Below, in pieces: positions 1,714 to 34,421 of a stretch of DNA of 44,574 nucleotides. The translations under genes were made by a program, and so were the position numbers. Location of the stretch: the sequence record PX063913.1; one strand, written 5' to 3'. Below the pieces are notes generated by a model, which was not told where the DNA came from, made no database searches, and worked only from the letters and a program-made list of their open reading frames with translations. This stretch comes from a phage. Position 1 is the stretch's first letter. Every line of letters begins with the position of its first letter.

Positions 1714-1735
1714 GGGGCCGCACGGCCCCTTTTTT
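1714..1735. terminator. Rho-independent terminator between convergent genes
   Basis: GGGGCC-gcac-GGCCCC hairpin followed by T6; lies between the fibre stop (1707) and the stop of the minus-strand gene (1734). Confidence 0.7.
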
Positions 1736-2309: not shown

Positions 2310-2351
2310 CGTGTGGCCCTCCTTGATGCGGGCCGAAGCCCGCGATTAGAA

Positions 2352-2906: not shown

Positions 2907-2969
2907 AGTATTACCCTTTTAGTGAGGGGGCGGTATTGCCCCCGACACGTGTACTATAGTGCAACCAAC

Positions 2970-3440: not shown

Positions 3441-3661
3441 TTTAAGCTCTCAATAAGGGTGTAACGGGCGCTTCGCGCGGTAAAGGAGTTGCACACGAAA
3501 TGGCAACGCTGAGTCATGACAAGCCAACCGGTGAGGTCAAGGCCCAAGATGTATTCGGGACGAGACGCGCGCACCACACGATTGCGTCGCGGGTCTATGC
3601 AGTAGTCTTTTTGCATTTGGTCTACGACCGCAGGGTCGCGATCAACGATTAAGATATTCAC
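3437..3661 (-). CDS. Hypothetical small protein
   Basis: 74-aa ORF, GTG start at 3661 preceded by AGGAG; overlaps the Dam gene 3' end by 20 nt. Confidence 0.4.
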   Translation of the reverse strand: MNILIVDRDPAVVDQMQKDYCIDPRRNRVVRASRPEYILGLDLTGWLVMTQRCHFVCNSFTARSARYTLIESLK

Positions 3662-4127
3662 GTAGTTCTCCTTCGCTCATTATTTCAATTTGTGCGCTGC
3701 CGCTGGGCGGCGCTTCGTCAAAGATTATCAACTGCTGGCACTTGTTATTGCTCGGCCCGACTTCACCGGTTACAGCGTGTATAAATCGGATACGCCAGTC
3801 CAGAAGAATTATCAGGTTTGCAGTCTTCCGGGCCAACCGCGCCCACTTCGTCGACGTGTCCTGATTCAGTAGCATGACGGTCCGACGTCCATGCGCCGCA
3901 CACTCGACCCACGGCAGCGGATCGGAATACGGCGGGTTGCACCACTTCCACCCTTTCAACTCTGACCAGTCCACATCGAGCGCGCTGTGCTCCGCCGTGA
4001 AGTAACGCGGTAGCAGATGGTTGGCGTCGCTTGCCGCCATGTCATAACGGAATCGGTACTTCCGGCGCAGCGGTTTAAATAAAGCTGGCGGCGTGCGCCA
4101 GCTATCTTTTTGCTCACTCTTCTGCAT
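3642..4127 (-). CDS. DNA N6-adenine methyltransferase (phage Dam-like)
   Basis: WRTPPALF...FRYDMAASDANH...WCNPPYSD matches the phage N6-MTase family including the catalytic NPPY motif. Confidence 0.8.
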   Translation of the reverse strand: MQKSEQKDSWRTPPALFKPLRRKYRFRYDMAASDANHLLPRYFTAEHSALDVDWSELKGWKWCNPPYSDPLPWVECAAHGRRTVMLLNQDTSTKWARLARKTANLIILLDWRIRFIHAVTGEVGPSNNKCQQLIIFDEAPPSGSAQIEIMSEGELREYLNR

Positions 4128-4572
4128 GATCTGGATCTATCGCGTACAGGGCAATTTTCTTATTACTGTTTAGAACGCGTTGCACGCGCTTTGATTCCTC
4201 GGTGCCGAGCGGTCGGCAGTCGGAGTAGTAAGACCCGTTCCCTCGCCACGCAACCAGCACCAGGTCTTTCCGGCCAATCTTAGACGTGCGGCCCTTCGGA
4301 CGCACGTACTCCTCGGCCCGTTTGCAATGCTCACGCAGCCCGTCGGCAGTGATGCGGTTTAGTGCAACGCTGGTGGTGTATCCGGTGCGCTGCATAATCC
4401 CCATCAATTCGAATAGCAGTTCGAAGCGCTCCTCTAACTCCATGCGACGCTTTTCTTCCGTTTCATAGCTTGACAGGTAGGTATCTGCCAGCGCGCTGAC
4501 GCGTTCTGCCTGCTCGCGGGCTTCGAGGCATTGCGCGGCCCAGTAGTTTTTCTCTTCTTGTAAAATTTTCAT
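4114..4572 (-). CDS. Hypothetical protein
   Basis: 152-aa ORF, ATG at 4572 with GGAGA upstream; no recognisable motifs. Confidence 0.5.
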   Translation of the reverse strand: MKILQEEKNYWAAQCLEAREQAERVSALADTYLSSYETEEKRRMELEERFELLFELMGIMQRTGYTTSVALNRITADGLREHCKRAEEYVRPKGRTSKIGRKDLVLVAWRGNGSYYSDCRPLGTEESKRVQRVLNSNKKIALYAIDPDHAEE

Positions 4573-4815
4573 TTATTTAATCTCCGTTGTGCGAATCTCA
4601 TTGCGTGGGATAAATTTGCCGTCCATCTCCACCCAGCAGACTCCGTATCGCCATTGGGTGTTACGGCCTGTTTGCTCGGCATACACGGTCTTGCATTCGT
4701 AGCGTTCCGTGTAGTAAATAGCCGTCGAAGGTATGCCAATACAACCGGCAATCATGAGGGTGAGTAGCACCCAAAATCGAAGGTCGCCGTCGTAGTCGAA
4801 AAATAATGATTTCAT
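4573..4815 (-). CDS. Small membrane protein
   Basis: Start moved to the internal ATG at 4815 (MKSLFF...), preceded by GGAGACAGTGAG; one hydrophobic helix WVLLTLMIAGCIGI. Confidence 0.5.
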   Translation of the reverse strand: MKSLFFDYDGDLRFWVLLTLMIAGCIGIPSTAIYYTERYECKTVYAEQTGRNTQWRYGVCWVEMDGKFIPRNEIRTTEIK

Positions 4816-4834
4816 CTCACTGTCTCCAGGTATT

Positions 4835-4859
4835 AAAAAGGGCGTCCAACCGGACACCC
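4835..4859 (-). terminator. Rho-independent terminator-like hairpin (minus strand)
   Basis: On the minus strand GGGTGTCC-ggtt-GGACGCCC followed by T5, between the HNH gene and the small membrane gene. Confidence 0.5.
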
Positions 4860-4895
4860 TCAATATAATGCAACCAATATGCTTATGCAACCAAT

Positions 4896-5219
4896 TTACG
4901 CATAAAAATTTGGGTCGCGCGCTACGTCTACCAGATACAGGTTACTAATGCGGTTGCCGTAATGGCCTGGCGTGCGCTGGCGGCACACAACGGCATAGCC
5001 TGGAGGGATTGTATTGCCAGTCTCAATAATCCACGCCACGCGTGCGCCAGACAGCGTCTTGCCGTTGCATTCGATACGAGTACCGCCATCGGCAGTATTG
5101 AGGTTGCCAATCTTGCAGCCGGTGGACTTTAGGCGGATAACGCCTGTTTTGCTGTCGTAGGAAAAAAGCTGATTGGTCATTGCCACTGAAAAATCGATGG
5201 CTTCGAATGTAGTGTTCAT
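4896..5219 (-). CDS. HNH homing-endonuclease-like protein
   Basis: LFSYDSKTGVIRLK...CNGKTLSGARVAWIIETG...NRISNLYLV resembles HNH_3 family endonucleases; active-site residues may be degenerate. Confidence 0.55.
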   Translation of the reverse strand: MNTTFEAIDFSVAMTNQLFSYDSKTGVIRLKSTGCKIGNLNTADGGTRIECNGKTLSGARVAWIIETGNTIPPGYAVVCRQRTPGHYGNRISNLYLVDVARDPNFYA

Positions 5220-5911
5220 TCTAAATTTTCCTCATTGACTGCGATTGCGAAGCCGCGCGGGGTGAGCGACCTGATTAATTTGGTGCGGGCGGATTTGCCT
5301 CCGAGGCGACTATACTGCTTCGAGTACCCTTTTTCAACGAAAACAGGTTTCTTCTCTGGCATACGGAAGCCGTTGCCCGTCCATAAGCAGGTCAGCTTCG
5401 GATATGAATCGCGGGCGTTGATGTATTCCGGGAATAACGGGTGCACGTCATCCTCCGGCAAATAGCCGCCATACTCCCACGGGTCAAACGAGTGGTCCGG
5501 CTTACGCCATTGAGTGGAGAGCACGCTGCGCGGATTCTCAATCATATACGGCACTTCAAAGAAATCACCCAGATAAGCGGCGATCTTCGCGGTGCGTACC
5601 GCCTTAAGCTGGAAGGCAGGGTCGCGGGCGCGTTTGCGCGGGAAAGCTGGCGCACCGCTAACCGCCAGATCCGTACACGGCGGGAATGCATAAATGATAT
5701 CCGGCGTGCCGAAATCACCATTCATCGCGCGGTCCACGAAGTCCAGATCGATAAACTCATTACGATATCGGATACCGCGCCCATAAATCCGGTAGTCCAG
5801 GTACGACCCGTGATCTGCTTCGGAGTAGTTGAAGCAGTAACACTTATGCCCCATCTCGGCAGCACGTTCAATCATCAAGCCGCTGCCGTCAAATAATGAC
5901 CAGATAATCAT
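5216..5911 (-). CDS. Short DNA cytosine-5 methyltransferase-like protein
   Basis: SLFDGSG (motif I-like), FPPCTDLAVSG (PC motif IV-like) and MIENP (ENV motif VI-like); only 231 aa with no obvious target-recognition domain. ATGA overlap with the HNH gene. Confidence 0.5.
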   Translation of the reverse strand: MIIWSLFDGSGLMIERAAEMGHKCYCFNYSEADHGSYLDYRIYGRGIRYRNEFIDLDFVDRAMNGDFGTPDIIYAFPPCTDLAVSGAPAFPRKRARDPAFQLKAVRTAKIAAYLGDFFEVPYMIENPRSVLSTQWRKPDHSFDPWEYGGYLPEDDVHPLFPEYINARDSYPKLTCLWTGNGFRMPEKKPVFVEKGYSKQYSRLGGKSARTKLIRSLTPRGFAIAVNEENLE

Positions 5912-7332
5912 TTGCGCGCCTTTTTAGCTTTCATGTATTCCATTAAATCGTCCTGAATGTCTCGCTTACTGTCGCGACGCTCCGCGACCAGTTCGTCCAG
6001 TGTGCCGCGCGCCTGGATAATGTAGACGAATACGGGACGAGGGTGTCCGGCTTGCATCTGGCGAACTGGCCCTATACGCTCCACGATCTGCGCAAAGTGC
6101 TCATAGTTCCAGGTGTCTGAGAAGATAGCAAGGTGGTGTCCGCCATCCTGCAAGTTAAGGCCGTGACCCGCCGATGCCGGGTGTGCGAACATGATGGGGA
6201 TCTCGCCCCTGTTCCATGCTTCCATATCCTTATTTCCTTGCTTACCCTTACCCATCGCGACGCCGTGCGGGAATTTCTTCTTAAGACGTGCCAGATCATG
6301 CTTATATTGGTACGCGACGAGCAACGGTGCGCCGTTCAACTCCTCCACTATACTTTCCAGCGCGTCCAGTTTAGCGTCGTGAATTTTCACCCATTCATCG
6401 GTGCGCTCGCCGTCTTCGTCGACCTTATATACGGCCCCCGAAGCAAGCTGAAGGCACTTAATGGTCTTCGACGCGGCGTTTGCCGCCTCTACAGTTCCGC
6501 TTTCCAGTTCCGCAAATAGCTCCGCTTCGAACTGGTCATAAATCTTGCGGGCTTTCTTCGGCAGGTCCACAACAACCGGCGTATAGATCGGCTTGTCACA
6601 CCCGAAGTATTCAGCCGCGTCAACTGTTAGTGACACGTCGGACAGGCGTTGTTGGATTTCTTTCTCGGAGTTCTTAAGCGGGGCGTGCTGCATAGTGAAG
6701 CTGCTAGGCTTAACAGGCTTGCTAATAAACCAGCGATCAGTGAATGCCTTATAACTACTGCCGAGGCGTTCGCCACCGTCGACAAACCACGTCTGACCCC
6801 ATAGGTCTTTCAGCCCGTTTGGTGCGGGTGTGCCTGTCAGGTTAATCCAGCGCTTGACGTGCTTATGTGCGATCGCTGCCAGCGCACGGGCGCGCTTACT
6901 TCCCTGCTTGCTTCGATAGCCTTTCAGCTTAGTCGATTCATCGGCAACCACGACCGTAAAGGGCCACTCGTCGCCGCAATACTCGACGAGCCACTCAACT
7001 ACATCATAGTTAATACAAACCACGTTGGCGTCGCTCTCAAGCGCAGCGATGCGGTCCTTCTCCGAGCCAGTACCATCTACTACCAGCAAGGCGGGGAAGC
7101 GCCATTTTTCCTGTTCCGGGGGCCATGTGCCGGATGCAACGCGCAGAGGGGCCAGCACCAGTACGCGGTCCTCCTGGTTGGACAGGATGCCGGTCTGGAA
7201 CATTTTATTCAGCGCCCACATGGTCGCGCCAGTTTTACCCGACCCCATTGTCGCCCATATATTGCATCGCTTATGCTTGAGGATGAACGCGGTTATCAAC
7301 TTCTGATATTCGCGGCGTCGGAATCGTGCCAT
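5908..7332 (-). CDS. SNF2-family DNA helicase/ATPase
   Basis: Walker A ATMGSGKTG, motif II VVVADESTK, SNF2-type LTGTPAPNG, C-terminal helicase motifs. Start placed at ATG 7332 (MARFRR...), which abuts the upstream gene; the longest ORF would start at 7422. Confidence 0.8.
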   Translation of the reverse strand: MARFRRREYQKLITAFILKHKRCNIWATMGSGKTGATMWALNKMFQTGILSNQEDRVLVLAPLRVASGTWPPEQEKWRFPALLVVDGTGSEKDRIAALESDANVVCINYDVVEWLVEYCGDEWPFTVVVADESTKLKGYRSKQGSKRARALAAIAHKHVKRWINLTGTPAPNGLKDLWGQTWFVDGGERLGSSYKAFTDRWFISKPVKPSSFTMQHAPLKNSEKEIQQRLSDVSLTVDAAEYFGCDKPIYTPVVVDLPKKARKIYDQFEAELFAELESGTVEAANAASKTIKCLQLASGAVYKVDEDGERTDEWVKIHDAKLDALESIVEELNGAPLLVAYQYKHDLARLKKKFPHGVAMGKGKQGNKDMEAWNRGEIPIMFAHPASAGHGLNLQDGGHHLAIFSDTWNYEHFAQIVERIGPVRQMQAGHPRPVFVYIIQARGTLDELVAERRDSKRDIQDDLMEYMKAKKARK

Positions 7333-7336
7333 ATCT

Positions 7337-7555
7337 TTATTCCGCCTTTTTCCAGACTTCTGTCTCACTGTTCCAGTTCCTTTTTGTGGCGTCATAGTTG
7401 GTGCTGTGCCCGATGTGTACACCCGTCGCCCGAAAGCTCTTAAATTTTTGCCAGCACACCGTCAACGGCAGCGGGTAATTCATGCCCGCGATAAACCATA
7501 CGCGATCGCCTGGTTTGCATTCGCCCAGTGTTGTGAGTCGGTAGCGTTCTTTCAT
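7337..7555 (-). CDS. Hypothetical protein
   Basis: ORF with GGGAGAC upstream of ATG at 7555; track start at 7570 is a TTG. Confidence 0.45.
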   Translation of the reverse strand: MKERYRLTTLGECKPGDRVWFIAGMNYPLPLTVCWQKFKSFRATGVHIGHSTNYDATKRNWNSETEVWKKAE

Positions 7556-7598
7556 CGTCATGTCTCCCAAAAATGGCGGGACAAGCCCGCCGTATTAA

Positions 7599-7772
7599 TT
7601 ATGCTTGCGCGGCACGGTAGCGGCGCTGCCGTTCACGCTCTTTTTTATTTCGGCACGATTTGCACTCGGCCCGATACCCGTCTGGGCTGCGCGCCGTCTT
7701 TCCGGTGTATTTGTGGAACTGGGATAGCGGCTTAACGCAACCGCAATTACTACAACGTTTTTCTTCAATCAT
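7599..7772 (-). CDS. Small zinc-ribbon-like protein
   Basis: MIEEKRCSNCGC...AECKSCRNKK has two CxxC pairs; ATG at 7772 preceded by GAGGA. Confidence 0.45.
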   Translation of the reverse strand: MIEEKRCSNCGCVKPLSQFHKYTGKTARSPDGYRAECKSCRNKKERERQRRYRAAQA

Positions 7773-7812
7773 TTCTAAAATCCTCGATAGGGCTAACCTG
7801 CTCACTATACTG

Positions 7813-8094
7813 TTAAGCGACCAATTCAGCAACCAATAAATCACAGTCGGCTATGTTGTCGATGATGCGAACGTCCGCACCGCGGCGGGCCATTCGCTCA
7901 TGTTCTCGTACCTGGTGCGGCTTCGGTTTGCCTCCGGGGCGCTTCACTTCGACGAAAACTATCTTGCCGTTGATGATTATTATCAGGTCGGGCGCTCCTG
8001 CGCGCCCCTCCCATGCCAGTTTTCGGCAGAATCCGCCGACGGCTTTCGCCAGCTTCATAAGGTGACTTTGAATCTTGCCTTCTGGTGTCATCAT
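7813..8094 (-). CDS. VRR-NUC domain nuclease
   Basis: GAPDLIIIINGKIVFVEVKRPGG carries a PD...(E)VK core typical of VRR-NUC; ATG at 8094 overlaps the polymerase stop (ATGA). Confidence 0.7.
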   Translation of the reverse strand: MMTPEGKIQSHLMKLAKAVGGFCRKLAWEGRAGAPDLIIIINGKIVFVEVKRPGGKPKPHQVREHERMARRGADVRIIDNIADCDLLVAELVA

Positions 8095-10382
8095 TTTCTG
8101 TACCTGTACATAATGTCGCCTTCCGCGGCAAGCGGGAAGCCTTTCGCCCAAACAGGCAGGTCGCACATCAGCGCGCACAACTCCTCGGTTGTGTAGTCGT
8201 CGGTATCCGGCACTTCGGTGATCAGTTCATCGTGTACGGACAGTACGATCTCATACCCCGCAGCTTCAACGCCCGGCATGGACCATGCGAGGATATCGCG
8301 GCACAGCGCCTGCACGATGTTTTCCGTCAGTTTGCCGCCGTAGGTGTACTGGAATCCCCACTGGCGCGTCGTCTGATTCTCACCCTGATATTTAATGCGG
8401 GTGCTGGTGCGCTTCTTGCCGGTGTCTTCGTCGATCTCGGTCGTCACTGACAGCGCAATGCCTGGGTAACTCATAATACGCCCCGACGGCAACTCAATTT
8501 TCAACCACCACCCCGCGGCGTTCGGGTCGTCGCGCTCCTCGTCGAAGGTTGGGTCATGCTTCGCCTTCGTGCGGACTATCTTGAGCGCTTTCTTACCATC
8601 CGGGCGAACGTTCGCGCCAGCCCAGTACGCTTTGCCCGGATTGCGGATTGCACACAACACCGCGTCCTCAAGCTCGGCCCAAAAAGCTACCGTCTTCGGG
8701 TGAGCCTCGCGCCACATGCGTTTAATCGCATCACACGTAAGCCATACGTTTTTCGGCAGTATGTAAGTCGGACGCTCGTCCTTCTTGCCCGGCTTCGGCG
8801 GTCGCTTCGCTTCGTTAATGCGGGCGTATTCATAACCACGTTTCGCCGCCGCCCAAATGTGATCGGGGAATGTGCCCTTCATCACTTCCGCCATCGCGTA
8901 AAGGTCGAGGCCCAGATTTTTAGCGAACTGCAAGAACGCCGCCACGCCACCACCATAGCCCAGGCCCAATTCGCACGCCTTACCGATCTGGCGTAAGTCT
9001 TTGCGGTTGGCTTTAATGTATTCTGGGTCAAGGCCGAACATCTTGCCGGCAGTCTCACAATAGATATCGCGACCGGCCCTAAACACCATTAGCGCGGTTT
9101 TCTCGCCAGCGATCCAGGCAAGTCCACGCCCTTCCACGTTGGAGTAGTCCGCTACGACAAACTTCTTACCCTTCGCCGGAATAATGCACCCGCGGACAGT
9201 CGAGGCCGTTAGCTTCGATATGTCATACGCCCAGTGCGCTGTCCCACGTAACAGGGAGTTGATGCCGTTGGTGAGCATGTGCGACCGCACCCAAAAAGCG
9301 ACGTCGCTCTCGCCTTCACGGCGTTTAATCTTCCCTTCGTGGTCGTCGCTATATTCGCCGCGTGCCAGGTTTTGCGGCTGGAAGCCTTTACCGGCCCAGC
9401 GTAGCGTGCGCTTTGCGCCGCCATACTGAAGACACCCACGGCGGCGACCATCGGCGGATAGGCCATTAACGAGCGGATTGTACTTAGTCGACGCCGTGGA
9501 TGACGCACCGAGGCGCATCTCGATAAGCGCTTTGCCTTCGTCCGGGAAGTCTGGATCTTCCAGCAGGTCGTTAAGCGTGGATTTCTGCGCGTTGTGGATT
9601 GTGAACGCAGGCGCGAGGTCGCGCAGCGCGGGCAGGAAGTCATTGCCGGTTAGCTTACCGCCGAAGCGCTCCCAGGCTTCTTCCTTTAATTCTTCCTTAT
9701 GCGCCTGTACCGCTTTGATCGCAGCGCGTGCCAGGTCAACGTCCACATAGAAGCCGCGGTCGTTAATCAACTGGTCAATAAGCAGGATTTCGTCTTCCTT
9801 CGGCGTATTACCCCAGTCCGGTATGCGCCAATAGACTTCCCTCATCGCGATGATATCCAGCGCGGCATAGCGCAGGAATTTAGCCCATTCTTCAGGGTGA
9901 GTCTCGCGGGTGTAGCGGCGGATTTTGTAGGTCTTAGGGGTTGGCTTACAGAAGCGTTTGATCAGCGCCTTGCCAGCCTTATCCTTCGCGTGTTCTGCGT
10001 CAACGCCCAGCACCTGGCATTGCATGTCGAGACTACCCGGCAGCGCGTGTCGGAAGGCCATAATCATGGTGTCTTCGATCTGGCCTACCGGCAGGTCAAT
10101 GCCCCACTTCTCGCGAATAACCAGGCGGTCAAACAGGAGGCCGTTAGCCATCACGATTTTTGCTTTCTTGCGAGATACCCGGCGGAGCGCCTTGCGCAGT
10201 TCACGCGGCATTGTGGGGGACTCGGTGCAATCCCATGTCTGCACGCGGCCCTCGTCGATGGCGTAGGTGCAAATCATAATCTCGGTGGTTGGGTGCTCTG
10301 CGTAGGCGTATGCGCCAACTTTCTTCAGGTCTACCCCGCTAAATGTCTCGGTATCGAGAAACAGGCGTTCGAAGTCTTTCAT
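8091..10382 (-). CDS. DNA polymerase, family A, with 3'-5' exonuclease domain
   Basis: Exo I LFLDTETFSG, Exo III YAALDIIAM, Pol motif A VVADYSNVEGRGLA, motif B RQIGKACELGLGYGGG, motif C VLSVHDELI. Confidence 0.95.
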   Translation of the reverse strand: MKDFERLFLDTETFSGVDLKKVGAYAYAEHPTTEIMICTYAIDEGRVQTWDCTESPTMPRELRKALRRVSRKKAKIVMANGLLFDRLVIREKWGIDLPVGQIEDTMIMAFRHALPGSLDMQCQVLGVDAEHAKDKAGKALIKRFCKPTPKTYKIRRYTRETHPEEWAKFLRYAALDIIAMREVYWRIPDWGNTPKEDEILLIDQLINDRGFYVDVDLARAAIKAVQAHKEELKEEAWERFGGKLTGNDFLPALRDLAPAFTIHNAQKSTLNDLLEDPDFPDEGKALIEMRLGASSTASTKYNPLVNGLSADGRRRGCLQYGGAKRTLRWAGKGFQPQNLARGEYSDDHEGKIKRREGESDVAFWVRSHMLTNGINSLLRGTAHWAYDISKLTASTVRGCIIPAKGKKFVVADYSNVEGRGLAWIAGEKTALMVFRAGRDIYCETAGKMFGLDPEYIKANRKDLRQIGKACELGLGYGGGVAAFLQFAKNLGLDLYAMAEVMKGTFPDHIWAAAKRGYEYARINEAKRPPKPGKKDERPTYILPKNVWLTCDAIKRMWREAHPKTVAFWAELEDAVLCAIRNPGKAYWAGANVRPDGKKALKIVRTKAKHDPTFDEERDDPNAAGWWLKIELPSGRIMSYPGIALSVTTEIDEDTGKKRTSTRIKYQGENQTTRQWGFQYTYGGKLTENIVQALCRDILAWSMPGVEAAGYEIVLSVHDELITEVPDTDDYTTEELCALMCDLPVWAKGFPLAAEGDIMYRYRK

Positions 10383-10549
10383 TGCTTAATCCTCACCACG
10401 GCGTCAGCACTGCCGATCACGGAGAAGATGCCGTCGGAAAGGGTAATCTCCTCGCCGTTGTTGCGAATCTCGGCAACTGTGAAATATTCGCCCAGCATTT
10501 TGGACCATACTTGCATTCCGACTTTTACTTCGCTGGCTTTAATACGCAT
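10379..10549 (-). CDS. Small hypothetical protein (not in ORF track)
   Basis: 56-aa ORF MRIKASEVKVGMQVWSKMLGEYFTVAEIRNNGEEITLSDGIFSVIGSADAVVRIKQ; AGGA 9 nt upstream; stop overlaps the polymerase ATG (ATGA). Confidence 0.45.
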   Translation of the reverse strand: MRIKASEVKVGMQVWSKMLGEYFTVAEIRNNGEEITLSDGIFSVIGSADAVVRIKQ

Positions 10550-10565
10550 TTTTCATTGTCCTATT

Positions 10566-10589
10566 AAAAAGCCCGCATTAAGCGGGCTT
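10566..10589 (-). terminator. Rho-independent terminator (minus strand)
   Basis: On the minus strand AAGCCCGC-ttaat-GCGGGCTT followed by T5, just downstream of the SSB gene stop. Confidence 0.6.
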
Positions 10590-10607
10590 GAATAGTGGGC
10601 TTTGCCC

Positions 10608-11330
10608 TTAACGGCGGCGACGTTTACGTGGCGCTTCGTCTTCGTCATCATCGTCGTCATCGCGGCGCTTGGACTTTTTGGACTTGCGCGGCTTGTCCTC
10701 TTCGTCATCGTCATCACGACGTTTTGACTTTTTGGACTTGCGCGGGCTTTCATCTTCGTCATCGTTGTCCAGGTCTTCGTCGGAGCAAGAAGAACCGCCA
10801 CCGCCGAAGGATTCACCATCATCGCGGAAGCGCAGACCCAAAAGACCAGCACCGAGTCCCTTGCCGTTGGTATTGTTCCACGCCCAGATATCGAGTGACA
10901 CGTTGCAATAACAACCGGAGTAGATCTCCTGGCCTTCGATCTCGTCGCCTTCTACGGTCAGACCTTGTTCCGTCTGCTTCTCGCCGAGTGACGTTTGAAT
11001 GATCGGCTGTTTGAACGATTTGGCGTTGATGTACAACATGCCTTCGAATTCTTCGGTTACTTCGTCGCGCTCGTCACCGTCGCGAACTGCGCATTCCTTA
11101 GAATCCTGGGCGTAGTGGCGGTCCATCCACTTATCAGCATTCTTCTCGGATTTCAGCTTGTCGGTGAGCACTGCGCGCGCTGCCGCTTCCACTTTGTCCA
11201 CCTGCGGATCTTCTTTATCCAGAAGAATCACTGCACGGTATGCCGGTTTTTGACCATCCTGTTTAGGGGTATCGCGTTCCCAAATTTTAAGGAAACATAC
11301 GCGCACATTTTTCAGGTTGACTTTAGCCAT
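10608..11330 (-). CDS. Single-stranded DNA-binding protein (DUF2815 / T7 gp2.5-like)
   Basis: Start at MAKVNLKNVRVCFLKIWE (ATG 11330); YSGCYCNVSLDIWAWNNTNGKGLGAGLLGLRFRDDGESFGGG matches the DUF2815 SSB family. C-terminus is a tandem-duplicated acidic/basic tail ending RKRRRR. Confidence 0.6.
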   Translation of the reverse strand: MAKVNLKNVRVCFLKIWERDTPKQDGQKPAYRAVILLDKEDPQVDKVEAAARAVLTDKLKSEKNADKWMDRHYAQDSKECAVRDGDERDEVTEEFEGMLYINAKSFKQPIIQTSLGEKQTEQGLTVEGDEIEGQEIYSGCYCNVSLDIWAWNNTNGKGLGAGLLGLRFRDDGESFGGGGSSCSDEDLDNDDEDESPRKSKKSKRRDDDDEEDKPRKSKKSKRRDDDDDDEDEAPRKRRRR

Positions 11331-11420
11331 TTTCCAATTCCTCATTTTCACATGTATCGGGGTTATTGTGAGCCACCCCGTTCGGCTTGGTTGTTAATCT
11401 ACTTGGTTGCACCTAAGCGG

Positions 11421-11663
11421 TCAAGCATTTTCGTTAAAAAGATTTCGGGTCACGTAGTTAGTGGCGTTCTCGATCCAGCTTAACGGCGGTCGGTCGATGT
11501 TCTTCTCCACCCAGTCGACGGCAGCGTCACTATACCCGTCATCCAGCCAGCGGGTCGGATGACGAATCATCCACGCCACCATTAACACGCCTTGCACGCA
11601 ATGCAGGATAAAGCCCAGCGCACCGAGCAAAAACATCAATAAGATTGCAAATACTTTATTCAT
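11421..11663 (-). CDS. Small membrane protein
   Basis: N-terminal hydrophobic helix VFAILLMFLLGALGFIL; GAGGA upstream of ATG 11663. Confidence 0.5.
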   Translation of the reverse strand: MNKVFAILLMFLLGALGFILHCVQGVLMVAWMIRHPTRWLDDGYSDAAVDWVEKNIDRPPLSWIENATNYVTRNLFNENA

Positions 11664-13086
11664 TGCTTAAGTCCTCGTCAGTAGCTTCTGACCACGCAGG
11701 ACGCGGGTCGTCGATCGGTGCTAACACCGGTTTAGCTGGCGCGCGTGTGATTTTATCACACAGCTTAGCCCACACTTTCGGTTTTTCGTCCTTCAGTACC
11801 TTCTCGGCATCCGTAGGGCTGAGCAATGTTTCTTTGTACATCACATCGCGCTTGATCCGGGCCTTCGTGAAGATTTCAATCGCTTCGCTCTCGTCCGCCC
11901 ACTTGCGGATCCCTTCCTTACCGGCGACCATCTTGAGGCCCAGCGATTCGCCGTCGCCCGCCATTACCGCCTTGAATACCGCGGACTCGATAGCCTTGAT
12001 GTGCTGGCGCATTGCGCCCAGGCCTTCATAAGCCTTGCGCAGTTCCGCCGCGCTCATAGCGCCTGGTGTGGATTCATTCTTGCCTCGTTTAGCACGTCGG
12101 GCAGCCTTCCGGGCTTCACGGGCCATGTTGCGATCGTGGTTGGCGCATTCTTCCTCGGTAGCCACGCTCACGTCGTCGCCCAGGTCTTCGTCGGTTGCCG
12201 TTGGTGGTGTCATAGTGTCGATTGCGGCCTTCGCCCGGACGCTGCACTGGTCCGCAAATCTGCACCACTGGCACGCATCAACGCTGGGCCGGAAGTCGGC
12301 GCGGGTGAGTCCTTTTTTACCACGGGCGTACGCTTCCAGTGCGGCGATAGCACGCTTGGACGCAAACTTCGCGAATATCTCCAGCGCTTCCACTGAGATA
12401 TCCCACTCTGACGCCCCGCCGCAATACGGCTGGAAGATAACCAGGCGCACGGTCGTAATGTCGTACATGGTTTGCAGCTTGCGCAGCAGGCCGAGCGCGT
12501 ACAACATAAGCTGTTTGTTTTCTTTTGCCTCGACCTTATGTCGCCCGGTCTTCAGGTCGCCAACAATCAGCATGTACGTGCCGTCGGTCTTTTTCATGAC
12601 CATGACCATATCGGCAGTTCCGAACGTCTTAACCTTGTTGCCGTCGATCTCGAAGCCTGAGTGAAGGACGCGGGTAAGATCGGCGCGCATCTCAAGCTGG
12701 ACAAACTCCGCCACTTCAAGGAGCGGACGCCAGTGGTCGATGTATGCATCGCACTGCTTCACCATGTCGTCGTTGACCAGTACGCCGCCTTTCGGTGCTT
12801 TCGGGTGGGCCTTTACTGGCCCCTTGCCTTCGTTCTCGACGTAGCACCCTTTATACGTCTTTGCTGTTATCAGCTTTTCACCGGCGATAATGCGGTTTAG
12901 CACCACTTCAGATACGGTGTGCATACTCGTACCGTTAATCGCGGCTTGCCCGGATTCGTTCGGGATATCTTTTTCCACCACCAGGGCGGCGGGACACCCC
13001 ATCCATTTTTTAGCACCGGATGGGCCAAGTAATGAGTGTTCCGTATTACTACCGGATTGCGTTTTACGTTTTGGTTTAATCGCCAT
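11656..13086 (-). CDS. PD-(D/E)xK nuclease, DUF2800-like (RecB/Cas4-type)
   Basis: N-terminal HSLLGPSGAKKWMGCP and C-terminal Cys cluster CQWCRFADQC are typical of the DUF2800 family that accompanies DUF2815 SSB in phage replication modules. Confidence 0.65.
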   Translation of the reverse strand: MAIKPKRKTQSGSNTEHSLLGPSGAKKWMGCPAALVVEKDIPNESGQAAINGTSMHTVSEVVLNRIIAGEKLITAKTYKGCYVENEGKGPVKAHPKAPKGGVLVNDDMVKQCDAYIDHWRPLLEVAEFVQLEMRADLTRVLHSGFEIDGNKVKTFGTADMVMVMKKTDGTYMLIVGDLKTGRHKVEAKENKQLMLYALGLLRKLQTMYDITTVRLVIFQPYCGGASEWDISVEALEIFAKFASKRAIAALEAYARGKKGLTRADFRPSVDACQWCRFADQCSVRAKAAIDTMTPPTATDEDLGDDVSVATEEECANHDRNMAREARKAARRAKRGKNESTPGAMSAAELRKAYEGLGAMRQHIKAIESAVFKAVMAGDGESLGLKMVAGKEGIRKWADESEAIEIFTKARIKRDVMYKETLLSPTDAEKVLKDEKPKVWAKLCDKITRAPAKPVLAPIDDPRPAWSEATDEDLSNE

Positions 13087-13274
13087 TATTCCACCCTTGA
13101 AAACTGAGCAATGTAATATTCATGTTTAACACCGGCTCGCTTCGCGGCTTCGTTCATGGTAGCCGCCAAACCTCGGGCTTGAGTCCAGCAGCAATTCCAG
13201 TTCTGATTCATAACAATTTCTGGTTGCTCATCGCCGGTAATACGGCAACGAAATAAAACAAAGAATATAGCCAT
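13086..13274 (-). CDS. Hypothetical small protein
   Basis: 62-aa ORF, GGGAGA at 9 nt spacing upstream of ATG 13274. Confidence 0.45.
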   Translation of the reverse strand: MAIFFVLFRCRITGDEQPEIVMNQNWNCCWTQARGLAATMNEAAKRAGVKHEYYIAQFSRVE

Positions 13275-13526
13275 TTATTTTGTCTCCCAGCGGTCAATTG
13301 TTTTTGCTTCGGATGCAACTGCGAAGCGAACATATTCCAGATTGGAATCCGCCCAAATATAAAAGTCGGGGTTAATAAAAGTGGTGCGCTTAATTTGCGC
13401 GGGGGTGTTGCGGCGTTTATCAATTACAGCAACGCGCGATTGAAAGCTGCCGATGCGTTCGAATAACCAATAGTACGGGCGCTGGTCGCGGGAATCCACC
13501 GCCTCGATTAGCGTGAAGCGTGCCAT
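13275..13526 (-). CDS. Hypothetical protein
   Basis: 83-aa ORF, AGGA upstream of ATG 13526. Confidence 0.5.
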   Translation of the reverse strand: MARFTLIEAVDSRDQRPYYWLFERIGSFQSRVAVIDKRRNTPAQIKRTTFINPDFYIWADSNLEYVRFAVASEAKTIDRWETK

Positions 13527-13539
13527 TGTCTCGTCCTCT

Positions 13540-13566
13540 AAAAAGAGGCCCGCAGATTAGCGGGCC
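13540..13566 (-). terminator. Rho-independent terminator (minus strand)
   Basis: On the minus strand GGCCCGC-taatct-GCGGGCC followed by TCTTTTT, after the stop of the acidic protein gene. Confidence 0.55.
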
Positions 13567-13574
13567 GGATAATA

Positions 13575-14117
13575 TTAGTCTTCCAGTTCGAAATAAGTTT
13601 CGACGATTTCTTTTAGCTCGGTGTGGAAGTCTTCGACGTCGTCGTCTTCCAGTTTAGCGATTGATTTGATCTCGAACGATTCCAGCAGGTCGTCGAATTC
13701 GTCGTTCGCATCATCATCATCGCCGCCTGCAATAATAGCGGCATACTGTTTGATTTCGTCGCGCATCTCTGCCAGCGGGTCGGCTTCTTTCTTACCTTTC
13801 CCTTTCGCTGGTGCTTTTTTACCCTTCGCCGGTTTTTCGTCTTCGGCTTCATCATCATCGTCGTCATCCTCTACGACTTCTTTTTTGGCCTTTCCTTTAG
13901 ACTTGGTTTCTTTTGCCGCGCCTTTTTTCGCCTTGGGCGTATCTTCGACTTCGTCCTGATCGTCGTCTTCGACTTCAGTCTCCGGCTTGGCCTTGCCTTT
14001 CTTAGCGGTGCCGTTTGCTTTTGGGTCTACGGCAGCGCCCACAGTTTCATAATGTTTAGCGATGGTTTCCAGTGCTACTACGCCGCGAGTGATCAGGTTT
14101 ACGATTTGCTCAAACAT
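13575..14117 (-). CDS. Highly charged acidic/lysine-rich early protein
   Basis: Start at MFEQIV (ATG 14117, GGAG 8 nt upstream). The upstream part of the long track ORF runs through the promoter. Alternating poly-D/E runs and K-rich runs (KKGKAKP, KGKKAPAKGKGKK). First gene downstream of the leftward promoter. Confidence 0.6.
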   Translation of the reverse strand: MFEQIVNLITRGVVALETIAKHYETVGAAVDPKANGTAKKGKAKPETEVEDDDQDEVEDTPKAKKGAAKETKSKGKAKKEVVEDDDDDDEAEDEKPAKGKKAPAKGKGKKEADPLAEMRDEIKQYAAIIAGGDDDDANDEFDDLLESFEIKSIAKLEDDDVEDFHTELKEIVETYFELED

Positions 14118-14313
14118 GGTATATCTCCGATTGGTTAAGTTTAGGTGTCGACCATTAACTTCGTCGGTGGCCTTAACATAGAGCCAGGTTACGCGTTCTC
14201 CCTTTCGGGTAGTGGACCTGGTTATATAATCACGGTTGGGAATCCTGACACTTCGATCCGGCCCCTGCGTTGCCCCTCTCCAGTTTGCGTCCTGCATCCT
14301 GTCGACGAGGTGA

Positions 14314-14342
14314 ATATTAGATTGGTTGCAGAAGGGAGTCAA
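14314..14342 (-). promoter_or_regulatory. Leftward sigma70-like promoter
   Basis: Minus strand reads TTGACT, 17-nt spacer, TAATAT; the spacer contains the ATTGGTTGCA motif. Confidence 0.5.
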
Positions 14343-14457
14343 CAACTAATTTAAAAAAAAAGCGCCGAAGCAAAATGCGACGGCGCTAACCAATAAGAGA
14401 CAATGAGACGGGAGTATTATTACACGCGTGCGCGCCCGTTTCAATATTCCAAAGGAG

Positions 14458-14517: not shown

Positions 14518-14847
14518 ATGAATATCAACGACGCAATCGAAATGTTAACTAAGACTGTTTGCAGTGAGACTAGCCGGTCATGGGCGTATACCGATGCCGT
14601 GGGGCGGGTGCTATTTGAAATCGAACGTCTGCGCAGTGTCGAAAAAGAATTGCGCGCCAGGCTGGAATTACTCAACGGTACGGCGGCGAGCAAGCTGCAA
14701 AAGCACAATGAAGAAATGGAAGAATATAAAAAACAGGTTATCCGTTTGCGCGATGAGGGAAAGTCATGGGCGATGATCGCGGAGTTGACAGGAATTAATC
14801 AGAGCACCGTGCGCTCCTGGGTACGCAATAACAAAACTTCGAAGTAA
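14518..14847 (+). CDS. Helix-turn-helix DNA-binding regulator
   Basis: C-terminal GKSWAMIAELTGINQSTVRSWVRN is a classic HTH; first gene of the rightward arm; GGAGA RBS. Confidence 0.65.
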   Translation: MNINDAIEMLTKTVCSETSRSWAYTDAVGRVLFEIERLRSVEKELRARLELLNGTAASKLQKHNEEMEEYKKQVIRLRDEGKSWAMIAELTGINQSTVRSWVRNNKTSK

Positions 14848-14857: not shown

Positions 14858-17122
14858 ATGAGCTTAATTAAATTCGCTGTAACACGACCCGCTAAAAAAG
14901 GCGAAAAAGCCAGGGCGGAAAACTTCCAGATGACCACCGATGAATTTTTCGAATTTATCAATGACGCGAAAGAAATCTCATCGGTGCACATCAACAAGAC
15001 CGAGGATAAAGCCGAGTATGCGCGCCGCAAGCGTAAGGCCGACGGCATCGTGGCATATACCAGTGACGGCCTCCGCCGTAAGACCAGTGCGGTTGACCGC
15101 TCGATCCTGTTCTTTGATATTGACCGCACCGACACTCGCACCTTACGCCGCTGCCGCAAAGCGTTCATTGACGCGGGTCTGGAACACGTATTCCACACCA
15201 CTACCGGCGACCGTCACCCGCTTAAAGGCGGCACGCGTTGCGCCCGTTTCCTGGTGCTCACAGACAAACCCGTACCGGCGGAAGACCTGGGCCGCGTGCA
15301 GTACGCGCTGTTAGACCAACTGGGCCTGTCTGATGTGGACTTCGACGACTGCACGAAAGATACAAACCGCCTGATGTACCTACCACACCAGCAGTCTGTC
15401 ATTAAGTGCCACTACGGAAAGCGCGCCAGTGTGCGTCGTCTGCTTCGCCGGGCTGACAAGCTGGGAGTGGAGAAAGAGGAAGTACGCCGCGAGCTTACCC
15501 AGGGCGACGACGCAGTGGCGGACGGGATTCTGGACTGGTGCTTCCAGGCAGGATTCGAGGAGTTATCTTCTGGTCGCGGTTATGAAGTGCCGTGCCCGAA
15601 CGAACATCTGCACAGCGGCGAAGGGTCGACGGCTATCATGGTCAAGGATGGCGAGATCCGTTTCAAGTGTATGCACACCGGCAACGAGTGTTGCTCTGAG
15701 CTAAATAGACACCAGCACCTGGCGCTACGTCTTATCGGGATACCGGACCACCTGAACGTCGAGCCGCACAACATGTCACGCAAGCAAATCGCCGCCATCC
15801 TCCCCGGACTGGACGACGAGGAAGTCGAATCCTTATATGATCACATTGTTGATGCGGTTGGCGACGGCGAAGAATATGGCGTGTGCACCGATGCGGATCT
15901 GGATAACGAGCCGGTCGCACTGTTCAGCAAGCACGACCCGATCATCGAGGGGTTGATTAACTTTAAATCGACCTGGTATATGGCGGGTGAGTCGAATATC
16001 GGTAAGTCTTTCTATGTGCTGGGGCAGATGGGTGCGGTTGCCGCGGGTATTCCGTTTGGCGGTGCGAAGGTCGTCCAGTCTCATTGCTTCTATTTCGACG
16101 CGGAAGGCGGCGAAGCCTCCAACCAGCGCAAAGAAGCATTGCAGATTAAATATGAGCACGACCTCGACAAGCTGCACATTATCGATCTGCAGTCACGCGG
16201 CTGGGATATCACCAGCAAATCAGGCTTGCGCGAAGTTATCAGCTTTATCAACCGCACCGCTAACGGCGAACCGGTTGGCCTGGTGGCGTTCGACTCACTC
16301 AACCAAACTGTTGCGCTGCGGTCCGCCGATGCCAAACCGTTTGACGAGAACAACGCCAGCGATATGGGTGAAGTGGTCAAAGCGCTGAAGACCATTGCGG
16401 AAAATACAGGTGGCAGTGCGGGCGTCATACACCACCCGGCGAAGGGTGCAAACGGCAGCAGATCCCCGCGTGGGTCCGGTGCGCTTCATGGCGCTGTCGA
16501 TTCCGCTTTCTTCCTGGAACAGCCGGACGACAACCAGCCGGGACAACTTAACCTGTACCACGAAAAATCACGTAACGGCATCAAGCAAGCGCCGCGTGGC
16601 TTCGTCCTGCTCAAGTGCAAGGTGGCGGTAGATCTCCGCAAGTCAGAAGCGTTCGCGTCGCACCAGTCCACCAGCACCGGGCCAGACTTCGGCGACGTAG
16701 TTGCCGGTTGGGACGTCAAACCAATTGCATCCACGCCTCGCGACGAGACTCTGTACCTCGTACCGGTCGCCCTGGCACCGTTCGCTATAGAACAGGCGAA
16801 GGCCGCGGGCAAAGCCGCAGTTAAGGAAGAAAACGCCGCTGGTCCGCGCAACGAAAAAGAGAAAGTGCTTTATGCGGCCCTGGAAAAACTGATGGAAGAT
16901 AACCCGAACCATACTGGTTTCAGTAAATCGGCAATCGTCCGCCAGGCGGGACTCGCTAAGGGTGGCACTTCGACGAAGGCAATCGACGATATGGTCGAGC
17001 GCGGCGTGATTGGTTTCTATACAGATCCGCACACCGGGGCCATCTATGGGTCGTCGAATTTAGTCATCAAATCGGATATCCCCATCACGCTTTCGGCGAC
17101 CGATGATGACCTGAAAGATTAA
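14858..17122 (+). CDS. Primase-helicase (AEP-type primase domain fused to P-loop ATPase)
   Basis: N-terminal ILFFDIDRTD and HVFHTTTGDRHP resemble archaeo-eukaryotic primase motifs; central Cys/His cluster; Walker A GESNIGKSF and Walker B LVAFDSLN in the C-terminal half. Confidence 0.75.
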   Translation: MSLIKFAVTRPAKKGEKARAENFQMTTDEFFEFINDAKEISSVHINKTEDKAEYARRKRKADGIVAYTSDGLRRKTSAVDRSILFFDIDRTDTRTLRRCRKAFIDAGLEHVFHTTTGDRHPLKGGTRCARFLVLTDKPVPAEDLGRVQYALLDQLGLSDVDFDDCTKDTNRLMYLPHQQSVIKCHYGKRASVRRLLRRADKLGVEKEEVRRELTQGDDAVADGILDWCFQAGFEELSSGRGYEVPCPNEHLHSGEGSTAIMVKDGEIRFKCMHTGNECCSELNRHQHLALRLIGIPDHLNVEPHNMSRKQIAAILPGLDDEEVESLYDHIVDAVGDGEEYGVCTDADLDNEPVALFSKHDPIIEGLINFKSTWYMAGESNIGKSFYVLGQMGAVAAGIPFGGAKVVQSHCFYFDAEGGEASNQRKEALQIKYEHDLDKLHIIDLQSRGWDITSKSGLREVISFINRTANGEPVGLVAFDSLNQTVALRSADAKPFDENNASDMGEVVKALKTIAENTGGSAGVIHHPAKGANGSRSPRGSGALHGAVDSAFFLEQPDDNQPGQLNLYHEKSRNGIKQAPRGFVLLKCKVAVDLRKSEAFASHQSTSTGPDFGDVVAGWDVKPIASTPRDETLYLVPVALAPFAIEQAKAAGKAAVKEENAAGPRNEKEKVLYAALEKLMEDNPNHTGFSKSAIVRQAGLAKGGTSTKAIDDMVERGVIGFYTDPHTGAIYGSSNLVIKSDIPITLSATDDDLKD

Positions 17123-17216
17123 TTTTTGCGCGCATTGGTTGCCATCTTGAGTGTTTTTAGCTGGTCGCATTGGTTGCCGCGTAGTGTCAATATAATGCAT
17201 AGTTATGCAATAAAAC

Positions 17217-17395
17217 TGCATAAAGTAAGCGGGACAAAAAGCGGGACAAACCGGGGGCGGGACAAAGCGGGACAGCACCCCTGTCCCGCCCCGGATGACG
17301 CGGCCTGGCGAGGAGCGGGACAGGCGGGACAACTCCCAGTCTTTCAGACTAGACGGGGGTCAGCGGCCCCCCTCGTCTGAGACTGCATAAAATCC
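17217..17395. repeat. Iteron-rich non-coding element, copy A
   Basis: TGCATAAA followed by at least six GCGGGACA units (both orientations) and a long imperfect hairpin CAGTCTTTCAGACTAGACGGGGG...CCCCCCTCGTCTGAGACTG; homologous to 34186-34355. Confidence 0.8.
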
Positions 17396-17537
17396 GGGAT
17401 TGCAAAATACACGGCAGCATGTTGCGGATTGCGGTCGTCGCTGAACTAGGCAACCAATGCGAGATGCAGAAAGTGGTGTGGAAAATGCAGTTTGCAGTTA
17501 CAGCAGATAGCGATCAACTTTTTCATGCGCGTGATTA

Positions 17538-17580
17538 ATATTGGTTGCATCCAGCCTGGCACCCTGCTATATTGGTTGCA
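17538..17580 (+). promoter_or_regulatory. Promoter-like region with two direct ATTGGTTGCA motifs
   Basis: ATATTGGTTGCAT ... TATATTGGTTGCA; TTGCAT, 17-nt spacer, TATATT fits a sigma70 promoter 20-50 nt upstream of the gene at 17601. Confidence 0.45.
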
Positions 17581-17600
17581 CACCAACAGGAGGGCGGAAC

Positions 17601-18112: not shown

Positions 18113-18382
18113 ATGACCCGTAGACGCGCAAAACAGCTTTCGTGGCATATCCCCCTGCATTGCATACGAATATGGGCTAAGAATGCGAATGCGGGGGACT
18201 CTGTGTACTGGTGCTATCGCGACGACGTTAAGCCGTTGACGCAGACTCGCTACTTGCACCAGTTCGCCGCGCAACACGATTTCAGGGTGCGGACTTCCTT
18301 GCAACCAATGGGGATTCGTATTACATTACGCCGGAAGCCCGCCGTTGAGCGGGCAGGCAAACACTGGAGACTGAGAAAATGA
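18113..18382 (+). CDS. Hypothetical protein
   Basis: 89-aa ORF, AAGAGG upstream; C-terminus HWRLRK. Confidence 0.5.
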   Translation: MTRRRAKQLSWHIPLHCIRIWAKNANAGDSVYWCYRDDVKPLTQTRYLHQFAAQHDFRVRTSLQPMGIRITLRRKPAVERAGKHWRLRK

Positions 18383-21177: not shown

Positions 21178-21218
21178 GCTTGACTCGCAACCAACATAGG
21201 GGCCATACTGCAACCAAT
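21178..21218 (+). promoter_or_regulatory. Promoter-like region with two TGCAACCAA motifs
   Basis: TTGACT then CGCAACCAAC and TGCAACCAAT upstream of the small ORF at 21239. Confidence 0.4.
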
Positions 21219-27531: not shown

Positions 27532-27643
27532 CCCGTCTGCGGACCCCGACGAAGATTTGATGATTGACGTGAAAAATATGGAATGCGGGGCGAAGCTGAG
27601 GGCGCAGGTGTTGGAGTTGCAGCAGATAATTAAGGGGCCGTAA
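27413..27643 (+). CDS. o-spanin (Rz1-like outer-membrane lipoprotein)
   Basis: ATG 27413 with AAGAGG at 9 nt; lipoprotein signal MLRVLTALIVVLTLSAC with lipobox LSAC; proline-rich mature part; overlaps and extends past the i-spanin. Confidence 0.6.
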   Translation: MLRVLTALIVVLTLSACGSSSVPLTPLTESALRPPCKFDNPSADPDEDLMIDVKNMECGAKLRAQVLELQQIIKGP

Positions 27644-27654
27644 TGGCCCCTTTT
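27634..27654. terminator. Bidirectional rho-independent terminator
   Basis: GGGGCC-gtaat-GGCCCC then TTTT; sits between the convergent o-spanin and the minus-strand gene. Confidence 0.65.
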
Positions 27655-28444: not shown

Positions 28445-28469
28445 TGCAACCAATATATTGCAACCAAGA
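28445..28469. promoter_or_regulatory. Divergent promoter region with two TGCAACCAA motifs
   Basis: TGCAACCAAT-atat-TGCAACCAAG between the minus-strand gene (start 28422) and the scaffold gene (start 28572). Confidence 0.4.
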
Positions 28470-33322: not shown

Positions 33323-33345
33323 GGGGCCAGTACGGCCCCTTTTTT
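33323..33345 (+). terminator. Rho-independent terminator
   Basis: GGGGCC-agtac-GGCCCC followed by T6. Confidence 0.7.
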
Positions 33346-33361
33346 ATTGGAGAATACTACA

Positions 33362-34152: not shown

Positions 34153-34185
34153 ACCCCCAAAATGTGAATGTCTATTCAGTTTTAG

Positions 34186-34355: not shown

Positions 34356-34421
34356 TAAGGTTTGTTTTAAATTCGCTGATACAATGACCGACGGCAACTG
34401 CATAAAAAGGGGGACTGCATA

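Follow-up and report, generated by a model that had tools for sequence, protein, structure and literature searches.

Why does a phage keep the same non-coding repeat cassette at two places 17 kb apart, one among its replication genes and the other among its tail genes? This question is raised by the phage DNA of sequence record PX063913.1 (44,574 nt, the whole of which was analysed and is called the window below), where a cassette of short repeats (iterons) followed by a hairpin lies directly downstream of the primase-helicase gene (copy A) and recurs before the gene of the tape measure protein (copy B). We computed the anatomy and conservation of the cassette, its association with replication genes, the concerted switching of its repeats, and the predicted winged-helix fold in the primase-helicase. 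On this basis we consider, with a probability of roughly 0.7, that the cassette is an origin-type binding site for the replication initiator of the phage, and both copies most likely bind the same initiator, namely the winged helix of the primase-helicase. The coordinates of the features are collected in Table 1.

Anatomy and conservation of the cassette

The gap behind the primase-helicase gene (17123-17600, 478 bp) holds only short open reading frames (ORFs), and these are disrupted by indels in relatives, so the gap has no credible ORF, as a preliminary description of the sequence had stated. Copy A starts about 100 bp past the primase-helicase stop codon, and its parts follow in the order TGCATAA box, four direct GCGGGACA units, an inverted repeat, two further direct repeats, and a 49-nt hairpin, which begins 215 bp past the same stop codon and is conserved across lineages. 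At least six units in both orientations had been noticed before at a spacing of 11-15 bp; there are in fact seven (six direct and one inverted), and the spacing had to be corrected to 9-16 bp, which holds for the arrays of both copies and is roughly helical. In the window, GCGGGACA occurs 18 times compared with 2.3 expected, and none of 100 shuffles reached 18; 15 of the 18 lie in two clusters, seven at 17229-17331 and eight at 34043-34299. The AT-rich stretch before the copy A iterons, whose TGCATA motifs had also been pointed out, contains the dyad TTATGCA-N7-TGCATAA (17203-17223), which is kept in 14 distinct A copies, and the stretch is a candidate DNA-unwinding element.

When the two loci were aligned (17204-17390 versus 34173-34358), they showed about 84% identity. 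The recurrence of the unit thus stands, but its exact length is 170 nt in copy A and 169 nt in copy B, not about 175 bp. The hairpin folds better than shuffled sequence, and its stems are identical between A and B with loops that differ in two bases (TCAGCGG versus TCAATGG), which agrees with the GC-versus-AT difference described earlier. Copy B lies, as had been described, between the tail assembly chaperone and tape measure genes. The chaperone ORF ends in a canonical -1 slippery heptamer, A AAA AAC (33715-33721); after the shift, translation could continue to 34038, and this frameshift would give a product pair of the G/GT type. Since the -1 product ends at 34038, copy B sits in a 383-bp non-coding gap, which also contains two 37-nt iteron palindromes (B1 and B2) that had not been listed before.

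Both repeat regions match 159 phage records with 80-97% identity, nearly all of them Escherichia or Shigella Dhillonviruses, including HK578, JL1, SSL-2009a and Sodalis phage SO-1, and the 44.6-kb window, whose length falls within the range of these complete genomes (about 43-46 kb), appears to be a complete Dhillonvirus genome of the HK578/SO-1 group. Every record sampled among the 159 Dhillonvirus genomes carries two to three matching places, so the elements are shared by the related phages. The SO-1 record (NC_013600.1) already annotates both loci as repeat regions A and B, with the wording 'direct, inverted and palindromic repeat sequences; sequence similarity with region A/B; possible ...'. 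Comparison of 14 distinct A and 13 distinct B copies showed that the repeat cores and hairpin stems are nearly invariant and that the spacers and the loop vary. The cassette is 170 nt long in 21 of 22 copies from 11 genomes, the exception being copy B of the window. A copies shared a mean identity of 91% with each other and B copies one of 90%, compared with 82-84% for A versus B, each locus having its own middle spacer. The A-B identity within genomes (83.6%) was not raised over that between genomes (82.3%, standard deviation 3.1), which indicates that the duplication is old and that selection, rather than frequent conversion, keeps both copies. Concerted evolution of A and B within genomes was therefore not supported overall, and only patchy shared polymorphisms were seen. 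A search for the cassette in E. coli genomes and PLSDB plasmids found no satellite or plasmid copy.

Repeat switching and the candidate reader

Sister metagenomic phages, with helicases 66-70% and tape measure proteins 59-64% identical to those of the window, retain the layout. In lineage 1, the hairpin and CGGGAC(A) repeats are still present at both loci, all repeats of lineage 2 are G(T/C)GTGGCA, lineage 3 (from one sample) has GTGTGCCA at both loci (L163/L166), and lineage 4 has GGTGCCA at locus A. The repeat thus becomes GTGTGGCA or GTGTGCCA at both loci together, and this was judged where both loci are readable, i.e., in two lineages (L159/L160, the two ends of one contig, and L163/L166). 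All four iteron types fit GNGNGNCA. Such a concerted replacement at two loci 17 kb apart points to one sequence-specific reader of both, whose specificity has drifted, and the variants GCGGGACA, GTGTGGCA, GTGTGCCA and GGTGCCA would be natural specificity variants of this reader.

The sister lineages also gave several other observations on the two loci. The 27,589-bp Logan contig ERR11172925_9173 of lineage 2 runs from within copy B to within copy A and has one and the same 27-mer at its two ends, which indicates that the duplicated cassette splits short-read assemblies into arcs of 27.6 kb and 17 kb. In the GTGTGCCA lineage, the copy A hairpin differs (GCAGTCTAAGAGACTGAGATCGGGAG...CTCCCTCCCGTCTCTAGTCTGC, L163 ~2900-2955) and the copy B hairpin stays of the Dhillonvirus type (L166 ~1660-1710), so two hairpins of one phage can diverge while the iterons remain matched. 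Between chaperone and copy B, lineage 1 has two inserted reverse-strand genes of no known function (L157 1353-2101), and lineage 3 has one small reverse ORF before copy B (L166 1271-1444). The junction of the chaperone frameshift ORF with copy B is thus a hot spot of insertion, and copy B stays with the tape measure gene. Farther homologues (44-48% identity; for example L128 with ACTCGCAA, and TS33) also have a non-coding gap at the corresponding position, with repeats of quite another kind, and in this region the sequence of their winged helix is different as well. In Hafnia phage TS33, the gap after the helicase gene is present, GGGACA arrays are absent and the tape measure gene is not preceded by a gap, and Kagunavirus fBC-Eco01 has a different gene order.

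The repeat GCGGGACA was also found in phages unrelated to that of the window. When IMG/VR was searched for three such units separated by 1-8 nt, at least 120 stretches were obtained, and the following counts hold among the matches listed. Of the 95 loci without DNA similarity to the window, 61 have the array either at a replicative helicase gene or within a lambda-O-like initiator gene. When all ORFs near the arrays were clustered, two large clusters defined two groups of loci. In the helicase or primase-helicase group (35 loci), the array lies at the 3' end of the gene, mostly within 0.6 kb and on the coding strand, and the representatives tested combine AAA_25 with a Toprim domain, a Prim-Pol domain or no recognisable primase domain. 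In the initiator group (32 loci), the array lies within the gene of a 250-350-aa protein; two representatives match the PHROGs 'replication initiation O-like' or 'DnaD-like helicase loader', and the neighbouring gene is often that of a helicase. The spacing is most often 11 bp, which is one helical turn, and many arrays pair direct repeats with an inverted pair around a short palindrome, like that of the window. The primase-helicase was the only protein of the window with homologues near the unrelated arrays listed, and the array stands just past the 3' end of this homologue in 12 of the 13 loci that have one. With a permuted 8-mer as control, 46 stretches were obtained. Their spacing was a multiple of 3 in 86% of cases, like that of coding repeats, and none of these 46 had an initiator gene at the array or an adjoining helicase gene.

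About 34 long non-Dhillonvirus contigs had one array each, and two arrays were found only in Dhillonviruses among the phages sampled. Two copies are thus as unusual as had been supposed, but there is a precedent in SPP1 oriL/oriR (PMC6316719). As a separate observation, the internal arrays with 11-bp spacing (e.g., L050, L015, L026 and L118) force a conserved linker peptide such as SGTAAGQQRD on their genes, which suggests that the linker conservation in the O-like and DnaD-like proteins is imposed by the DNA and not by the protein.

The candidate reader is part of the primase-helicase. Its residues ~666-737, C-terminal to the helicase core, are predicted to fold as a winged helix, and helices H2 and H3 of this domain differ among the four iteron types. 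The core matches only AAA_25 in Pfam (RecA/DnaB-like, RepA type), and its PHROG matches are DnaB-like and primase-helicase families; no superfamily 3 core was found with Pfam or PHROG. The N-terminal part matched no Pfam primase family, but weak PHROG 'DNA primase' matches cover residues 15-177. A sequence search of PDB with the helicase gave no relative and no similarity to P4 alpha, and the C-terminal fragment alone as query retrieved one partial protein. When nine window proteins of the replication region were compared with PHROGs, and five of them also with Pfam, no initiator of the O, DnaD or gp38 type was found.

From these comparisons we infer winged-helix binding, origin firing, and roles of the hairpin and of copy B as follows. 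The 8-bp GCGGGACA iterons would be read by the C-terminal winged helix of the phage's own primase-helicase, and this one protein, like P4 alpha and pRN1 ORF904, would recognise the origin, unwind the DNA and prime its synthesis. Once several of its molecules had assembled on the seven iterons (six direct, one inverted), the neighbouring stretch with 74% AT would melt and the ring helicase would be loaded, while the conserved hairpin may extrude or act as a loading or priming signal; a T7-like replisome (PolA and gp2.5-like SSB) would then take over. Copy A, which stands just behind the putative initiator gene in the classic position of an origin and has an AT-rich flank, is probably the primary origin. 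Copy B, which has the palindromes B1 and B2 in addition, would be bound by the same protein and, by analogy, could be a second origin or an auxiliary site, either an enhancer like P4 crr or a fork barrier like SPP1 oriR. Among the possibilities raised in the preliminary description, an origin is the one best supported by comparison, through the arrays at helicase and initiator genes, the concerted switching and the predicted winged helix.

Several points weigh against an origin read by this winged helix. The co-variation of winged helix and iterons comes from four to five lineages and is confounded by phylogeny, so that any lineage-specific protein would co-vary. Covariation within the hairpin is weak, with 2 of 16 pairs compensatory in 11 diverse sequences. 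In an hhalign comparison, the helicase C-terminus and the N-terminal DNA-binding domain of the O-like initiators were not significantly related (E 0.085), and the GC skew of the window singles out neither copy A nor copy B. Both copies stand in transcribed, same-strand contexts, which makes a role at the level of RNA or transcription conceivable. A literature search found no paper on the replication origin or on these repeat regions in Dhillonvirus. To our knowledge, self-loading at origins is not established for helicases of the RecA/DnaB type, unlike the superfamily 3 initiators.

Two further proposals go beyond the favoured reading. The first, which is possible but clearly tentative, is a two-site system in which one initiator (primase, RecA-type helicase and winged helix) reads a simple and evolvable GNGNGNCA code at both sites, and the site before the tape measure gene is a programmed initiator-bound barrier or switch, not a redundant origin. 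By analogy with the proposal for SPP1 oriR, this second site could stall forks and lead to concatemer synthesis, or it could alternatively make the expression of the distal tail operon depend on the state of replication. The second is that the exact 8-mer GCGGGACA, common to the fused helicases and the O-like proteins, may mark an origin-and-reader module that is portable between replication systems.

Alternative explanations and the surrounding genome

Among the alternatives, the one that survives best, although we consider it unlikely, is that the arrays are operators of a phage transcription regulator such as the small helix-turn-helix (HTH) protein encoded upstream of the primase-helicase, and that they time middle and late genes from the leaders of two operons (the genes from 17601 and the tape measure operon). 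Both copies indeed lie on the transcribed strand between promoter-like motifs and the next genes, and copy B remains upstream of the tape measure gene in the sister lineages in spite of the inserted genes. However, the C-terminal HTH of this protein, GKSWAMIAExTGINxSTVRSWVRN, is invariant across lineages with differing iterons, whereas the repeats switch among four types and helices H2 and H3 of the winged helix change with them. Since its DNA-binding helix does not change, the HTH protein cannot explain the switches, and its earlier nomination as a binder of the array is now disfavoured. The arrays of unrelated phages lie inside initiator genes or at helicase gene ends and not at promoters, and no other DNA-binding protein of the window recurs beside the arrays among the matches listed. 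A regulatory side effect is still plausible, as iteron-bound initiators often repress transcription too, and an initiator bound before the tape measure operon could affect its transcription.

The HTH protein is probably a regulator that reads ATTGGTTGC and not the iterons. This motif has 24 sites at up to one mismatch in the window compared with 12 expected, mostly as intergenic pairs, and the sites overlap -35-like and -10-like hexamers (e.g., TTGCAT-17 nt-TATATT at 17545-17573). As both ATTGGTTGC and the helix of the HTH protein are conserved in the sister lineages, the motif is a candidate promoter or operator element for this protein. The pair at the start of the copy A gap together with TATAAT (17134-17196) is possibly a promoter reading into the cassette, the TTGCAT-17 nt-TATATT site at 17540-17579 is promoter-like and may function accordingly, and TGATACAAT behind copy B is possibly the promoter of the tape measure operon. 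A scan for consensus promoters in the copy A and copy B regions gave nothing useful. A scan for intrinsic terminators found no site on the + strand in either region, and the hairpins are followed by CATAAAAT or AATAAGG, not by a T run.

Somewhat less probable again is that the cassette acts as RNA, i.e., as a processing site for RNase III or RNase E, as an antitermination element, or as a non-coding RNA that serves as a protein sponge. The orientation of both copies along the surrounding genes, the conserved stems with a loop that is free to vary, and the CTGCATAA-type boxes on both sides of the cassette would suit this explanation. Copy A folded as RNA reached z -2.85, but copy B as RNA was no better than shuffled sequence (z -1.3). 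No family of Rfam 15 matched at the gathering threshold anywhere in the window, compensatory changes are limited to the two hairpin pairs mentioned above, and the scan of the two regions showed no terminator-like site on the + strand. In addition, the switching of the iterons keeps repeat identity and not base pairing, and identical arrays occur elsewhere within protein-coding initiator genes. The RNase III alternative mentioned in the preliminary description thus found no positive support from Rfam or from compensatory pairs.

That the copies are a recombination substrate for loss or exchange of the 17-kb segment, or the remnant of a mobile element (e.g., a miniature insertion element that landed twice), is very improbable: they do form direct repeats at a distance of 17 kb, the sister lineages have an insertion hot spot at the chaperone/tape measure junction, some polymorphisms (e.g., loop alleles and two forms of the last iteron pair) are common to both loci, and metagenome assemblies break at both copies, but both positions are fixed across the genus and the sister lineages, E. 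coli genomes and plasmids contain no further copies, no recombinase is associated, and the locus-specific middle spacers together with an A-B identity that is not higher within genomes than between them mean little ongoing exchange.

Both copies of the cassette lie among the rightward genes of the phage, which run from 14518 to 43278; the leftward genes run from 1734 to 14345. The GC skew has its minimum near ~14 kb, where transcription diverges, and it tracks the transcription direction. Besides PolA and the SSB, the phage encodes an exonuclease and a second helicase. A packaging site (pac or cos) was considered as another reading of the repeat regions and was rejected: the end of the linear HK578 record, placed by offset from the HK578 match coordinates, maps near ~22.5 kb of the window, by the probable terminase genes. 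Two features apart from the cassette were also seen. The ORF 1-1707, whose start coincides with that of the window, holds two in-frame tandem duplications (503-628, 63 nt twice; 818-997, 90 nt twice; 83% identity). In the structural region, GGGGCC...GGCCCC hairpins with flanking A or T runs (27626-27650 and 33323-33347) are sited at two gene boundaries and resemble bidirectional terminators.

Table 1 Coordinates of the cassette copies, their parts and associated features (window positions unless a contig locus is named)
Feature	Position	Strand	Details
Cassette copy A	17216-17385	+	170 nt; TGCATAA box, iterons, spacer, hairpin
Copy A iterons	17229-17331		GCGGGACA direct at 17229, 17241, 17257, 17267, 17315, 17324; inverted 17282-17289
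AT-rich stretch before copy A iterons	17186-17228		74% AT versus genome mean 45%
Imperfect hairpin of copy A	17337-17385		49 nt; DNA fold -11.4 kcal/mol, z -2.7
ATTGGTTGC pair, then TATAAT	17134-17142, 17169-17177; TATAAT 17191-17196	+	Motif enrichment; conserved in relatives
ATTGGTTGC pair overlapping TTGCAT-17 nt-TATATT	17540-17579	+	Upstream of gene starting 17601; outside duplicated cassette
Cassette copy B	34185-34353	+	169 nt; iterons and hairpin as copy A, middle spacer locus-specific
AT-rich stretch before copy B iterons	34158-34197		72.5% AT versus genome mean 45%
Hairpin of copy B	34305-34353		49 nt; DNA fold -11.4 kcal/mol, z -3.4
Iteron palindrome B1	34042-34078		37 nt; two direct and two inverted CGGGAC units; DNA fold -13.6 kcal/mol, z -5.2
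Iteron palindrome B2	34121-34157		37 nt; 95% identical to B1
TGATACAAT	34377-34385	+	Resembles extended -10 element; invariant in all B copies
Primase-helicase gene	14858-17122	+	754 aa; Pfam AAA_25 residues 357-531; PHROG 3228 'replicative helicase-primase'
Predicted C-terminal winged-helix region	16853-17068	+	~residues 666-737; candidate iteron reader
Small HTH protein gene	14518-14847	+	First of rightward operon; Pfam HTH_23 / Sigma70_r4_2
Tail assembly chaperone and -1 frameshift extension	33347-34038	+	Pfam Phage_TAC_4; upstream edge of copy B gap
Tape measure protein gene	34422-37064	+	Downstream neighbour of copy B in every lineage examined
ATTGGTTGC sites, leftward part	2961-2980, 4870-4895, 7817-7837, 14321-14329
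ATTGGTTGC sites, middle	17134-17177, 17450-17458, 17540-17579, 18301-18309
ATTGGTTGC sites, rightward part	21187-21218, 28446-28468, 44550-44558
PolA (family A polymerase)	8091-10382		Part of T7-like replisome
gp2.5-like SSB	10608-11351		Part of T7-like replisome
Shared 27-mer ends of lineage 2 contig	L159 1-27 and L160 4844-4870

Comparison with known systems

Dhillonviruses, among them HK578 and SECphi4, are frequent phages of E. coli, which have been isolated as candidates for therapy and biocontrol and serve as test phages in defence-system studies. The present analysis gives precise coordinates for two putative initiator-binding sites and a candidate reader domain, and the two repeats, at which short-read assemblies break, are also sites to avoid or to exploit in phage engineering.

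The nearest likeness for the two-site layout is SPP1. Its oriL and oriR, 12-13 kb apart, consist of direct repeats and AT-rich DNA, and gp38 binds the two of them. In the early region, one site is located within the initiator gene or beside it; the second is intergenic and interrupts the otherwise conserved order of morphogenesis genes, and oriR has been proposed to stall forks and to trigger the switch from theta to sigma replication (PMC6316719, PMC3485210). The phage of the window is likewise a siphovirus of ~44 kb with two similarly built sites, one at the putative initiator gene and one in an intergenic gap of the late genes. In SPP1, however, the initiator gp38 is separate and works beside a loader (gp39) and a DnaB-type helicase (gp40), whereas the candidate reader here is fused to the primase-helicase, and no separate origin-binding protein of the gp38 type was found in the PHROG and Pfam comparisons described above. 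The SPP1 repeats have no sequence relationship to GCGGGACA, and the conserved 49-nt hairpin belongs only to the cassette described here. If copy B acts like SPP1 oriR, the switch from circle-to-circle replication to concatemers would become testable in an E. coli system that is easily engineered.

The lambda origin lies within gene O, and identical GCGGGACA units were found inside O-like or DnaD-like genes of 32 unrelated contigs among the matches listed. Iterons that serve an initiator are the shared principle. The iterons of the window are intergenic, and there is no O-like gene among its scanned replication proteins. A parallel for the parts of the cassette is oriV of the IncQ plasmid RSF1010, which has iterons, an AT-rich segment and the ssiA/ssiB hairpins and is used by an AAA_25-type hexameric helicase and a dedicated primase (its proteins are RepA, RepB' and RepC). 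By this analogy, the hairpin of the cassette may act as a signal for single-strand initiation. In RSF1010, the iterons are bound by a separate protein, RepC, and there are two hairpins, one on each strand, compared with one hairpin per cassette here.

The likeness in protein architecture is with P4 alpha and pRN1 ORF904, autonomous initiators in which primase, helicase and a C-terminal winged helix form one polypeptide. P4 also has 8-bp repeats at two separated loci, ori and crr, and is in this respect a further precedent for two sites. In pRN1, a stem-loop origin lies just downstream of its own primase-helicase-winged-helix gene, which is itself preceded by a small repressor gene (PMC4234260, PMC2777425). 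Here too, a stem-loop stands directly downstream of the gene of the putative initiator. The helicases of P4 alpha and ORF904 belong to superfamily 3, whereas that of the window is AAA_25 (RecA/DnaB-like), so a fused primase, RecA-type helicase and winged helix would carry the idea of an 'all-in-one initiator', known from P4 and pRN1, to another helicase superfamily.

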